Counted from the stretch's first letter, positions 34,554 to 40,822 are shown. The stretch is DNA of 40,822 nt from Methylobacteriaceae bacterium (GCA_019242655.1 JAFAVH010000115.1:1-40822), one strand, 5' to 3'. The notes: generated from the sequence alone by a model not told the origin. Numbers and translations: made by a program.

Positions 34554-35903
34554 TCATTCTTCCGCCAGTCGCCCGGCCAATGCAGCAAGATCGATCTTCT
34601 CGGCGCGCGATCCAGTCATCACCTCGGCGACCGTCGCAGCGACGTGATCGAGACGCTCTGCTTCATGCTCCGAGGAGAGGAAGAAGCGCAGCCGCGCACC
34701 CTGCTCGGGCACGGCGGGATAGAGGATCGGCTGCACCTCGATGCCGCGATCGAATAAGCGATCGGCGGCGCGCGCGGCGACGATCGAACTGCCGGTCATC
34801 ACCGGCACGATCGCCGCGCCGATCGAGGCGCCGGTATCGAGGCCGTGCCGCCGCGCTTCCGCGAGGAAATGCGCGCCGTTCGCGTGCAGCCGGCGCACGC
34901 GTTCCGGCTCGGCGCGCAGGATCTCGAGACTGGCGAGCGCCGCAGCGGCGATTGGTGGCGGCAAGCCGACCGAGTAGACGAAGCCCGGCGCCGAGCAGCG
35001 CAGATAGTCCACGATCTCGCGAGATCCGGCGATGTAGCCGCCGCAGCCTGAGAGCGTCTTGCTCAGTGTGCCCATCCAGACGTCGACCTCGCCGGGATCG
35101 ACGCCGGCATGTTCGGCAATGCCGCGCCCGGTCGCGCCGAGGACGCCTAGCGCATGGGCTTCGTCGACCATCAGATGTGCGCGGTGCCGTCTCGCGATCT
35201 CGACGATCCGCGCGAGATCGGGAACGTCGCCGTCCATGCTGTAATGCCCCTCGATCACGATGAGCGCGCGGTCCGCGGCGACGCGCGAATGGCTGAGCAT
35301 GCGCTCCAGCTCGTCGAGGTCGTTGTGCGGGAAGGCGAGGCGGTGCGCGCCGCTCGCCAGCGCGCCCTGGACGATGCTGTTGTGGCTGAGCGCATCATGC
35401 AGGATGAGATCGCGGCGGCCGACGAGATGACCAAGCACCGTGACATTCGTGGCATGGCCCGAGACGAGGGTGAGCGCGTCTTCGGCGTCGTAGATATCCG
35501 CGAGCGCGCGTTCGAGTTCGCGATGGATGGGCCGTTCGCCGGAGACGATGCGGCTCGCCGAGACTGACGTGCCGTAGCGATCAATGGCGTCCTTCGCCGC
35601 ACGTGCGACCCGCGGATCCCCGTTAAGGCCGAGATAGTTGTAGGACGCAAAATTGTCGAAGCGCGCGCCGTCTATCATCGCCTGCGCCGTGGGGACGCCG
35701 TCGTGGGCGCGGAAGAACGGATTGCGGATGCCGAGCGCCTCGCCGGCGCGCCGCACCATCGCAATCTCGGCTGCGACATCCGTCTGCCCAAGCATCGGCT
35801 TGGGCAAAGGCCGCACGTCAGCCGACGGTTCCGGTGGACGCGTGCCCATCCTCGCGACCAGCCGCGCCTTGGCGGCATCCGACAAGCCCAAACCCTTGCT
35901 CAT
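34554..35903 (-). CDS. PLP-dependent alpha-oxoamine synthase (8-amino-7-oxononanoate synthase / serine palmitoyltransferase family; RkpG/WcbT-like)
   Basis: 449 aa from ATG 35903, 35 nt after the PKS stop. [44 protein letters not shown] with the PLP Lys codon at 35058..35060. The longer ORF to 36062 would overlap the PKS. Confidence 0.88.
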
Positions 35904-35937
35904 GCCGCCGCCGATTCGCACAGCGAGCGGGGCGAAA

Positions 35938-38900: not shown

Positions 38901-40822
38901 CGAGCAATGGTCGGATCGCGTCGATCGTCGCCCCGCTATCGCCGAAGCTCAGCGCGTGCAGCCCAATGATCAAATCAAACGCGCCGGTATCCTGCGCATC
39001 TTCCCAAGCGATCGCCCTTGCAGTTGATCGGGTCGCCAGCGCGTCCGTGAGCGCCGGAAGATCGTCGGCGTCGGTTGCGGCAACGATCCGCGCCCGCTCG
39101 CCGAGGCGATCGGTCAAACGCTGCGTCAAGCGCCCACGGCGCGCGCCGATCTCGAGGATGCGAAGCGGGCGACCGATCGGCAGCGATACGCTGGCTCGCT
39201 CGACGGCATCGATCAATCGGTCGGCCGCCGCCGTTCCGCTCGGCGAGTCGTAGAGCAACTGCTCCCACAGCGCAGGCGCCACCAAGGCTGCAGCCGCGCC
39301 GCCCAGTATCATTTCGGGAAGCGCCGCCGCTCCGGCCGCCAACAGGGCGACATCCGCACCGGCGGTCGGCGTGTCGAAGAAGAGGCTCTGCAGGATCGCG
39401 GAAGCGGGTGGCAGTTCGTCGCCGACGGCCCAAGAACCGCTTTCGTCCTGCTCGGCCAAGCCGTCTGCCTGCAGCCAACCAAGGAGGACAAGCGCAAGTG
39501 CGCGGCCCTGCGGCGTGGTCGGACCAGCCCCTAGCATGACGTCGATGTTGATGCGTCCGTTAGGCGCGGCGCTGCGCAGTGCTTCGAGCGCTGCCGCCGA
39601 GGCATAGGCGTCGGCGAGCAGCGCCGCTTCGCTCTGGCCTTCCGCCGGAATGCTCGCGAGGATTTCGGCCGTCGAGGGCAGGGGAAGGGCCGCACCGTCG
39701 GCGCTCGGCACCGTCACCGGGCGGAAGAACGGATCCTTCCCCAAGGTCTTGCCGCCGAGCGCAACGCGCACGAACCAGCATTCGAGCAGTTCGGCAACGA
39801 TCCGTCCATCCGCTGCGATCAGCGCCACGTCGGCGCGGATAGAGCGCGGCCCAACGCGGGTCAGCCGCAGCTGCGCCGAACGCGGTGCGCAGGCTTCGCG
39901 GTCGAGCAGCCGGATCCGACCGAACCGCCATGGCATCACGCCGGTGCCGCTGCCGAGCTGCCCCGCCGCCAGCGCGAGCAAACCTTGGAGCGCGCCATCG
40001 AGCAGGTTCGGCGCGATCAGATAACCGTCGCCGAGATGCACCTGCTCCTCGAACAGCACGATCGCCGATTGCGGCGATGCGATTTCCACCTGCGTGACCG
40101 TGCGGAACGCCCCGCCATAGTCGAGGCCCAGATCGTGCGCGAGCGCATAGAGCCTCGATCCAGGCAAGATACGCTCCTTCGCGCCGATCTCGCCAAGATC
40201 CCAATCAACCGCGGTACCTGCCTCCTCGCGTGCGGCGAGGCGGCCGCTCATATGTACGGTCCAAGGTTCGCGCTCGAGCCGCGGACGCGAGGCGAGGGTG
40301 AACTCGTCGAGCGCGGCGCCGATGCGGAAGTCCAATTCCCGCAGCACGCCCGGCTCGATCACCAGCGCACGCCCGATTTCGAGATCGATCAGTTCGAGTG
40401 CGGCCGCGGTAGGGAAGCGCGCGCCTGCCGCCGCCAGCGCCATATCGATGAGCGCGGCGGCGGGCACCACGATCGCGCCGCCGACCTGATGATCGGCAAG
40501 CCACGGCTGGAGCTCGACGCCGATATGGCGCGACCAGCGATCCGTATCGCCACCGCCGCGGCGTACGCCCAGCAGCGGATGCTCGTCGCGCTCCGTGACC
40601 GGATACTCGTCCTCCTGCGTCGGCGGCAGCCAGAAGCGTTCGCGCTGCCACGGGTAGCGCGGCAGGCCGGAAAGATCCTGCGATCCATGAAAGGCAGGAT
40701 TGCCACGAATATCGGCGCCGGCGACATGGCAGCGCGCGAGAAGCTCGGCAACGGGGTCGCCCTTCGAGGGCCGGCGCGAAAGGCTGGTGACGACGCGGCC
40801 TTCGACGTCCGATGCGCGTAAC
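35938..40822 (-). CDS. Type I polyketide synthase (RkpA/WcbR-like), 3' part; the N-terminus (KS-AT) lies beyond the window
   Basis: The frame is open to the window edge (no stop from 40470 to 40821). [13 protein letters not shown] is the post-AT linker. DH domain: EHPLLG ... [13 protein letters not shown], His codon 40489..40491. MT-like motif ILEIGARRG at 39133..39159. ER: HGGAGGVG at 37708..37731. KR: LTGGLDGFG at 37099..37125. ACP: LGMDSL, Ser codon 36211..36213. No thioesterase domain. Confidence 0.92.

Follow-up and report, generated by a model that had tools for sequence, protein, structure and literature searches.

A polyketide synthase and alpha-oxoamine synthase pair of the RkpA/RkpG and WcbR/WcbT type in a probable Kps capsule locus, a possible source of an amino lipid for the capsule

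The gene pair rkpA/rkpG has been known for about 30 years, and the notion that it supplies a lipid carrier or anchor goes back to the 1990s. In the rhizobial view, rkpA makes, and rkpGHIJ modify, a lipophilic molecule that is the carrier or anchor of the K antigen (PMC3557214, PMC4881576). In Burkholderia pseudomallei, wcbR knockouts have reduced capsular polysaccharide I (CPS-I) (PMC3735121, PMC7858667). The genetics of the pair in capsule production, which these sources relate second-hand, concern Sinorhizobium meliloti and B. pseudomallei only (PMC4881576, PMC3735121). Here, we describe a pair of this type at the end of a 40,822-nt stretch of DNA filed under Methylobacteriaceae bacterium (GCA_019242655.1, JAFAVH010000115.1:1-40822), which we call, as a whole, the window. 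The minus strand of positions 34554..40822 holds two genes, a type I polyketide synthase (PKS) followed by an alpha-oxoamine synthase (AOS). We put at roughly 0.6 the probability that these orthologues of rkpA/rkpG and wcbR/wcbT form the lipid-making module of a Kps capsule locus, in which the AOS off-loads the PKS chain as an amino-keto lipid for the capsule.

The PKS frame is open from the window end at 40821 to a TGA at 35938..35940, a run of 1,627 codons with zero internal stops. The gene therefore extends upstream past the window end. Its visible part is 58% identical to the full-length 2439-aa Sphingomonas PKS of locus L001, over the C-terminal 67% of the latter. The first-pass annotation, made from the sequence alone, had read this part as a post-acyltransferase (post-AT) linker, dehydratase (DH), methyltransferase-like (MT-like) domain, enoylreductase (ER), ketoreductase (KR), and acyl carrier protein (ACP), followed by a tail of about 50 aa without a thioesterase. 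The open frame and Pfam bear out this order; the tail is there too, with a length of 54 aa, and a Pfam search from the DH through the C-terminal tail found no thioesterase. The E-values of the domain matches leave no room for chance. Four plus-strand open reading frames (ORFs; 35653..36813, 37369..38514, 38489..39253, and 39985..40821) lie antisense to the PKS and its strong domain matches, and were set aside as high-G+C artefacts.

The reductive domains have intact motifs. The DH has H111xxxGxxxxP and D275xxxQ, both conserved in 28 family members (the second as DxxxQ/H), and the ER has the family-conserved NADPH motif HGGAGGVG. The KR has TGGLDGFG (the GxGxxG motif) and S...YxxxN, which are conserved in the family alignment. 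The phosphopantetheine serine of the ACP is S1537 in GMDSL (codon 36211..36213), and the DSL is invariant in the family. The MT-like domain gave a sub-threshold match to Methyltransf_23 (1.4e-5, 25.3 bits versus a cutoff of 27). Its S-adenosylmethionine-binding motif I is degenerate, and GxGxG is lost in nearly all homologues of the 28-member alignment. Because motif I is degenerate across nearly the whole family, the domain is best read as a structural pseudo-methyltransferase, and an active C-methyltransferase was rejected.

The ketosynthase (KS) and AT domains would lie past the window end, and their features are known from the relatives L001 and L002. In these relatives, the PKS has the KS at its N terminus, has no loading module, and carries the AT motifs GHSVGE and YAFHS, which by the established AT motif rule indicate malonyl extender units. 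Since these AT motifs are of the malonyl type and the reductive loop is complete and intact, the expected product is an unbranched, saturated acyl chain on the ACP. The PKS has the look of a genuine fatty-acid-type synthase whose MT domain is inactive. The PKS appears unable to release the chain, because it has no thioesterase.

The AOS lies downstream of the PKS, as the first-pass annotation had it, with a gap of 34 nt and not 35. The ATG at 35903 is the real start of the AOS, because the 120 listed homologues are about 400 to 464 aa long and align from MSKGLGLS. The ATG at 36062 gives the longest ORF (502 aa, overlapping the PKS) and was rejected on homologue lengths and alignment. The protein matched the Protein Data Bank sequences of serine palmitoyltransferase (SPT), 2-amino-3-ketobutyrate CoA ligase (KBL), 8-amino-7-oxononanoate synthase (AONS), and 5-aminolevulinate synthase, with a best E-value of 2.7e-69, and its AlphaFold2 model has a confident core (mean predicted local distance difference test [pLDDT] score, 85.3). 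The catalytic set is conserved relative to KBL and SPT: H174, S222, D247, H250, T279, K282, and R404. K282, the lysine that would bind pyridoxal 5'-phosphate (PLP), is encoded exactly where the first-pass annotation had placed the lysine codon. We assign the AOS to the fold-type I PLP enzymes of the alpha-oxoamine synthase family, and the condensation activity is predicted.

Among named relatives, Sphingomonas proteins match the AOS best (71 to 76% identity), and capsule-locus homologues in plasmid and chromid records are 49.7 to 59.7% identical by tblastn. In the catalytic core, the AOS is 50% identical to S. meliloti RkpG and 59 to 63% identical to the other sampled members of the capsule clade (Burkholderia, Bordetella, Pseudomonas, and others), with 60 to 62% for the Burkholderia-type homologues, but only 36 to 38% identical to solved SPT, KBL, and AONS. 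A neighbour-joining tree of the core placed the AOS within the capsule clade, and placed that clade as sister to AOSs that are fused to an ACP or a PKS. These fusions are the nearest non-capsule relatives, with 50 to 55% core identity: a Streptomyces KS-AT-ACP-AOS, a Planktothrix type I PKS that carries an AOS at its C terminus, and a Bacillus ACP-AOS. Capsule AOSs and fusions share His150 in SG[H]ATN, where SPT, KBL, and AONS have Phe. The first-pass annotation had likened the genes to rkpA/rkpG and wcbR/wcbT, and this holds, with the same synteny and with 49.7% AOS identity to RkpG and 55% to the homologue of a Caballeronia locus. By these comparisons, the AOS is the RkpG/WcbT orthologue of a capsule-type subfamily, and its clade belongs to what are predicted to be carrier-protein-dependent releasing enzymes.

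The AOS has an N-terminal extension of about 60 aa with the motif GLSxxAKxxLxxR (AOS residues 4 to 20), which is kept in most AOS ORFs from the 88 sources read. The ACP- and PKS-fused homologues match the AOS only from query residues 40 to 62, and no solved AOS aligns before profile position ~38 to 66. The predicted N-terminal helix is thus a feature specific to stand-alone capsule-type AOSs and missing from the fusions, as far as the alignments go. On the PKS side, the tail carries the motif LARHE (36025..36039, minus strand), and a pattern [LV]-A-x-[RQK]-H-[GE] recurs about 25 to 35 residues after the ACP in alpha-, beta-, and gammaproteobacterial PKS homologues. We infer that the AOS helix and the PKS tail may be a docking pair, which makes docking a testable hypothesis.

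To follow the pair in other genomes, we used a pattern scan with one genome per species. The AOS pattern matched in at least 594 species-level genomes. The 80 best matches came from alpha-, beta-, and gammaproteobacteria and one Desulfomicrobium, and 55 loci from other species had full 10-kb flanks. In all but one of these 55 loci (54/55), the same PKS lies directly upstream of the AOS on the same strand. At least one Kps gene lies within the flank in 37/55, KpsS or KpsC in 27/55, a short-chain dehydrogenase/reductase (SDR) in 24/55, and an LtaS-like gene in 21/55. These neighbour counts are lower bounds, because the PKS takes 7.5 kb of the 10-kb upstream flank. The PKS-AOS pair is therefore an almost invariant unit in hundreds of species. 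One full-flank locus, L043 of Rhodovarius lipocyclicus (AOS at 10001-11164), is alone in having a capsule-type AOS and a KpsS-like gene with no PKS within 10 kb upstream.

Four kinds of locus show the setting of the pair, the last three of them from a tblastn search of plasmid and chromid records. In Sphingomonas nostoxanthinifaciens and a metagenome contig, a full PKS of 2439 to 2471 aa, with KS-AT first, is followed by AOS, GT4, KpsM, and KpsE. The order AOS-GT4-KpsM-KpsE was found in L001, L002, and L008, and in L002 the start of the GT4 gene overlaps the AOS stop, which suggests that the product lipid may be glycosylated. Genes for a KpsS-like protein, an SDR, and a sulfatase-family protein lie divergently, upstream of the PKS, in the Sphingomonas relatives. 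The KpsS-like protein of one of them scored 257 bits against an equivalog cutoff of 600; it is therefore a diverged member whose acceptor may differ. The rkp-1 region of S. meliloti reads rkpU, rkpA (2502 aa), rkpG, SDR, an unannotated LtaS-like stretch, a KpsS-like gene, and kpsF. A Caballeronia plasmid has the Burkholderia wcb-type order SDR, LtaS family, PKS, LpxC-like, AOS, and KpsD/M/T/E, and a Pseudomonas plasmid (L005; AOS 58% identical) has the pair beside KpsC, GNAT, LtaS family, SDR, KpsS, KpsF, KdsB, and KdsA.

The LtaS-like stretch of S. meliloti stands at the rkpI position of strain Ak57 (L003 16073-17795, CP090106.1), as a tblastn match with 30% identity and 86% coverage; the PLSDB gene table has no coding sequence there. 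The record CP090106.1 is 3.7 Mb long and labelled 'plasmid pSymB', yet it includes the rkp-1 region, a chromosomal one according to the literature.

Some loci have further enzymes at the pair. In Burkholderia-type loci, PKS and AOS are separated by a gene for an LpxC-like zinc deacetylase, which scored above the cutoff of NF009666 (497 bits); it stands at 15045-15971 in L004 and at ~8860-9800 in L034, L038, L046, L070, and L083. In the Pseudomonas plasmid, the GNAT and a phytanoyl-CoA dioxygenase-family gene adjoin the pair. These three are lineage-specific tailoring enzymes for amines, N-acyl groups, or alkyl chains. The LpxC-like enzyme and the GNAT fit an amine-bearing product.

We suggest the following scheme. 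The iterative, fatty acid synthase-like PKS would assemble, on its own ACP, a long acyl chain that is saturated and unbranched. The AOS would dock on the PKS, its N-terminal helix probably meeting the conserved PKS tail, and with PLP would condense an amino acid onto the acyl-S-ACP. With loss of CO2, this would free the ACP and form a long-chain 2-amino-3-keto lipid. The adjacent SDR of the relatives (RkpH/WcbP) may then turn the ketone into an amino alcohol by reduction, so that the route would parallel the opening two steps of sphingolipid synthesis. An LtaS/sulfatase-family membrane enzyme of the RkpI type and a KpsS-like 3-deoxy-D-manno-octulosonic acid (Kdo) transferase may convert this lipid into the lipid end of the polysaccharide, or attach it there. 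Direct off-loading from the ACP is supported because no other releaser was found in the PKS or among its recurring neighbours, and because the AOS has the full catalytic set. It is further supported by the ACP- or PKS-fused state of the nearest non-capsule AOSs, together with the helix of the stand-alone AOSs and the PKS tail motif. The first-pass annotation had proposed that the chain is off-loaded as a sphingoid-like amino lipid. This is plausible and partly supported: off-loading from the ACP is the natural reading, given the fused relatives, but the sequence assigns no serine-type substrate (298, 296, and 293 bits for the SPT, KBL, and AONS/KBL profiles). The sphingoid-like character is thus a hypothesis that presumes serine or a similar substrate. 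The role that the first-pass annotation suggested for the lipid, as anchor or primer of the exported glycan, is likewise hypothetical.

Several points weigh against an amino lipid made for the capsule. The three profile scores are indistinguishable and every NCBIfam model is below its cutoff, so no amino acid substrate can be assigned. The KS-AT part of the PKS and the SDR, LtaS-like, and KpsS genes lie outside the window and are seen only in relatives. The capsule of wcbR mutants is reduced and not abolished (PMC3735121, PMC7858667), so the lipid may not be strictly required. Sulfatase-fold phosphotransferases such as LtaS, EptA, and OpgB usually act on the periplasmic face, and periplasmic action of the LtaS-family enzyme fits poorly with the building of a cytoplasmic KpsS acceptor; crude hydropathy of two homologues of the LtaS-like partner gave four or five hydrophobic segments, which fits either orientation. 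We found no biochemical evidence for any family member in the accessible literature. Likewise, a literature search, with the primary papers outside its reach, found no paper that defines the PKS-AOS lipid, which agrees with the first-pass annotation that the product is undefined. The capsules of Escherichia coli and Neisseria end in lyso-phosphatidylglycerol (lyso-PG), and no PKS is known to take part. Fraysse and colleagues reportedly described in 2005 a poly-Kdo capsule of S. meliloti 1021 with a phospholipid anchor, and no amino lipid. These last two anchors speak for another explanation, namely that the product of the PKS is a special fatty acid, possibly hydroxylated or very long, which is ester-linked in a phosphoglycerol-type anchor, while the AOS is not the releaser and acts on another substrate or only in lipid modification. 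A phosphatidylglycerol-like acceptor is also still to be expected because KpsS- and KpsC-type Kdo transferases co-occur with the pair, and in older literature RkpG goes by the name 'acyltransferase' and WcbR by 'fatty acid synthase' (PMC3735121). However, for such a route the PKS has neither a releasing thioesterase nor a releasing acyltransferase domain, and the loci show no recurring one. The PKS-AOS adjacency in nearly every full-flank locus, the sister AOSs that are terminal domains fused to an ACP or PKS, and the conservation of all residues for PLP-dependent Claisen condensation also argue against it, and we regard an ester-linked anchor of this kind as improbable.

Slightly less doubtful, though still unlikely, is an amino-ketone or amino-alcohol lipid that stays free, sharing its regulation with the capsule but not covalently attached to it, as a membrane lipid, transient carrier, or export cofactor. 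In its favour, loss of wcbR lowers the capsule without removing it (PMC7858667), and the rhizobial literature says 'carrier' as well as 'anchor' (PMC3557214). Related AOSs make diffusible products elsewhere, an example being the CqsA type (NF005526, 164.8 bits versus a cutoff of 428). The 18/55 full-flank loci without a Kps gene in the visible flank would also fit a free lipid, but they are weak evidence because the visible flank past the PKS is only about 2.5 kb. Moreover, the pair lies between KpsS and GT4-KpsM-KpsE in Sphingomonas, and between the LtaS-like gene and KpsD/M/T/E in Caballeronia. We give very little credence to a housekeeping AOS (BioF, the SPT of sphingolipid synthesis, or KBL) that stands here by chance. 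Sphingomonads do make sphingolipids, bioF is the best NCBIfam match by score, and the JGI annotation labels AOS homologues 8-amino-7-oxononanoate synthase. However, the AOS is below the cutoff of bioF (TIGR00858, 341.5 versus 426.45 bits), of the KBL equivalog (307.8 versus 460), and of the SPT equivalogs NF047603 (alphaproteobacterial, 214.6 versus 670), NF047600 (294.6 versus 640), and NF047599 (287.2 versus 500). RkpG gave the same sub-threshold picture. Because it is below every NCBIfam equivalog cutoff, the AOS is neither BioF nor the housekeeping SPT of sphingomonads. Pfam and NCBIfam searches of the window ORFs found no biotin genes. The family-specific N-terminal extension, the invariant PKS linkage, and the low core identity to solved SPT, KBL, and AONS, set against 50 to 62% to capsule-locus and PKS-fused AOSs, likewise speak against a housekeeping enzyme.

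Beyond an amino-keto lipid off-loaded for the capsule, we tentatively consider a wider idea, to which we give less than even odds. A conserved module of five genes (the fatty acid synthase-like PKS without thioesterase, the ACP-dependent AOS, the SDR, the LtaS-family phosphotransferase, and the diverged KpsS) might build a dedicated sphingoid-type lipid that replaces lyso-PG as the acceptor and anchor of capsules exported by an ATP-binding cassette (ABC) transporter. This lipid would be a 2-amino-3-hydroxy long chain, possibly capped with phosphoglycerol, in at least ~600 proteobacterial species including rhizobia and Burkholderia. If so, it would resemble lyso-PG in shape, with the chain joined by a C-C bond and not an ester. 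It would also be a PKS-derived class of bacterial sphingoid lipid, independent of the housekeeping sphingolipid pathway of sphingomonads.

The window reads as a probable capsule locus of the ABC-transporter (Kps) type that also has heptose-pathway genes. Its features are listed in the table, and its G+C content is 56 to 69%. An AGE-family epimerase is also encoded downstream of the AOS on the minus strand. KpsE follows KpsM directly, with no KpsT between them, as in the Sphingomonas relatives. Among the window ORFs searched there was no KpsT, KpsD, KpsC, or KpsS; for the first three, tblastn with homologues from other loci was negative as well. Four paralogues that join N-terminal tetratricopeptide repeats (TPRs) to a GT9 domain suggest, with HldE and the GmhB-like phosphatase, a heptose-rich polymer. 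The searched ORFs of the window gave no recognisable GmhA isomerase.

WcbI is named for a protein of B. pseudomallei CPS-I, and the window resembles a wcb locus beyond the PKS-AOS pair because WcbI-domain proteins are present. The last of its three WcbI-TPR genes is convergent to the AOS and lies between the AOS and the GT4 gene, which directly follows the AOS in L001, L002, and L008. By this comparison, an insertion appears to have split a presumed AOS-GT4 operon in the window. A promoter and terminator scan of 32500..36100 found no promoter-like site and three terminator-like sites, no more than chance.

Features of the window that bear on the PKS-AOS pair and its capsule locus. Residue numbers are those of the visible part of the PKS or of the AOS.
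Feature	Position	Strand	Basis
RkpA/WcbR-type iterative type I PKS, 3' two-thirds	35938..40821	minus	Open frame and Pfam
Post-AT linker, residues 1-75 of visible part	40597..40821	minus	Usual signature read directly; aligns after AT domain of full-length relatives
Dehydratase	39787..40581	minus	Pfam PKS_DH_N residues 81-170 (5.8e-17), PS-DH 219-345 (6.9e-17)
MT-like domain, probably structural pseudo-methyltransferase	38782..39222	minus	Methyltransf_23 residues 534-680
Enoylreductase, medium-chain dehydrogenase/reductase type	37198..38166	minus	ADH_N, ADH_zinc_N, ADH_zinc_N_2 residues 909-1207 (up to 4.6e-23); TIGR02824 1.1e-62
Ketoreductase	36601..37134	minus	Pfam KR residues 1230-1407, 4.2e-58
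ACP domain	36103..36297	minus	PP-binding residues 1509-1573, 3.8e-14
PKS C-terminal tail, 54 aa	35941..36102	minus	No thioesterase, no domain match (Pfam)
Intergenic gap, PKS stop to AOS ATG, 34 nt	35904..35937	minus	Read from sequence
RkpG/WcbT-type alpha-oxoamine synthase, 449 aa plus stop	34554..35903	minus	Pfam Aminotran_1_2 (PF00155) 5.9e-42, residues 84-423
AOS N-terminal helix, residues 9-20, on flexible linker 21-40	35844..35879	minus	AlphaFold2; linker of low pLDDT
PLP lysine codon AAG, K282 in GTLSKT	35058..35060	minus	Aligned to K244 of E. coli KBL and to SPT lysine
WcbI-TPR proteins, three	2313-3905, 14302-15894, 33007-34467	plus	WcbI domain fused to TPR repeats
GT4 glycosyltransferase	31418..32635	minus	Pfam/NCBIfam
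KpsM	30610..31425	minus	NCBIfam 98 bits, below equivalog cutoff 300
KpsE-family protein	29397..30575	minus	NCBIfam, 253 bits
GmhB-like phosphatase	28799-29407	minus	Pfam/NCBIfam
HldE	26158-27615	minus	Pfam/NCBIfam
TPR-GT9 paralogues, four, ~630-700 aa	7052-9121 (plus), 9118-11178 (plus), 20491-22590 (minus), 24221-26101 (minus)		N-terminal TPR, C-terminal GT9 (heptosyltransferase)

Other parts of the window are less typical. Positions ~17000-20400 have a G+C fraction of 0.56 to 0.57, versus 0.62 to 0.69 elsewhere, and gene orientation switches here. A DUF535 fragment (17788-18390) lies in this part together with several short ORFs that matched no family, and the part may be an insertion remnant or the junction of two sub-clusters. 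An FkbH_N-domain protein (328-2256, plus), a GT90-family glycosyltransferase (5483-6433, plus), and an FkbM-type methyltransferase (15985-17214, minus) are unusual accessories for a capsule locus. Three larger window ORFs, 3958-5526, 11179-12507, and 13079-13993, had no Pfam match.

The pair in the window is a new Sphingomonas case of a known, widespread capsule-associated PKS-AOS module. As a sphingomonad example it is ordinary, and the question is no easier to test here than in the existing model organisms. What is new is the pseudo-MT reading, the proposed clade of carrier-protein-dependent AOSs, the hypothesis of tail-helix docking, and the scale of the family; the chemistry itself is predicted. 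A legume symbiont and B. pseudomallei both require the rkpA/rkpG (wcbR/wcbT) genes to make their capsule in full. If the product of these genes is an amino-lipid acceptor, the view of capsule anchoring would have to be revised for many bacteria, environmental and pathogenic, and a target specific to the pathway would be gained.

Among known systems, the group 2 capsules of E. coli and Neisseria, in which KpsS and KpsC make a poly-Kdo linker on lyso-PG, share KpsM and KpsE with the window and KpsS- or KpsC-like proteins with its relatives. Unlike the window, they have no PKS or AOS. The PKS, with the KS-AT of its relatives, has the same order as metazoan fatty acid synthase (KS-AT-DH-pseudoMT-ER-KR-ACP), which also has an inactive MT-like domain. 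It differs in having no thioesterase, with release proposed to fall to a separate PLP enzyme. SPT belongs to the same superfamily as the AOS and has the same catalytic residues. SPT and 3-ketosphinganine reductase also follow the logic of an AOS and then a reductase, which leads to a 2-amino-3-hydroxy lipid. However, the identity of the AOS to solved SPT is only about 36%, its scores lie far below the SPT cutoffs, and its acyl donor would be the ACP of a dedicated megasynthase instead of a small ACP or an acyl-CoA. Acyl-ACP can serve bacterial SPTs and BioF as a substrate. AOSs of PKS pathways include Fum8 (fumonisin), SxtA (saxitoxin), and PigH/RedN (prodiginines). The PKS-terminal AOSs of the Streptomyces, Planktothrix, and Bacillus fusions offer the model of an AOS as chain releaser of a PKS without thioesterase. 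In contrast to these, the AOS in the window is a polypeptide of its own that has a putative docking helix, and its context is capsule export and not a secondary-metabolite cluster.

The closest systems are those of the rhizobia and Burkholderia. RkpA/RkpG of S. meliloti are, like the window genes, a type I PKS without thioesterase and then an AOS, with 50% identity in the AOS core and the same N-terminal extension. In rkp-1, an SDR (RkpH), an LtaS-like gene (RkpI position), and a KpsS-like gene (RkpJ) adjoin the pair, whereas the Sphingomonas relatives have GT4-KpsM-KpsE after the AOS and carry the genes for the SDR, the sulfatase-family protein, and KpsS upstream of the PKS, in divergent orientation. 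The K antigen of rkp-1 contains Kdo or pseudaminic acid, in contrast to the heptose-containing polymer to which the sugar genes of the window point. WcbR/WcbT of the B. pseudomallei CPS-I type (seen in Caballeronia and in the Burkholderia loci L004, L034, L038, and L046) are of the same PKS and AOS families, with 62% identity in the AOS core, and wcb-type loci have LtaS-family, SDR, and Kps export genes near the pair. The Burkholderia-type loci have the LpxC-like deacetylase between PKS and AOS, where the window has only the 34-nt gap. Like the CPS-I loci, the window joins the pair to WcbI-domain and heptose-pathway genes.

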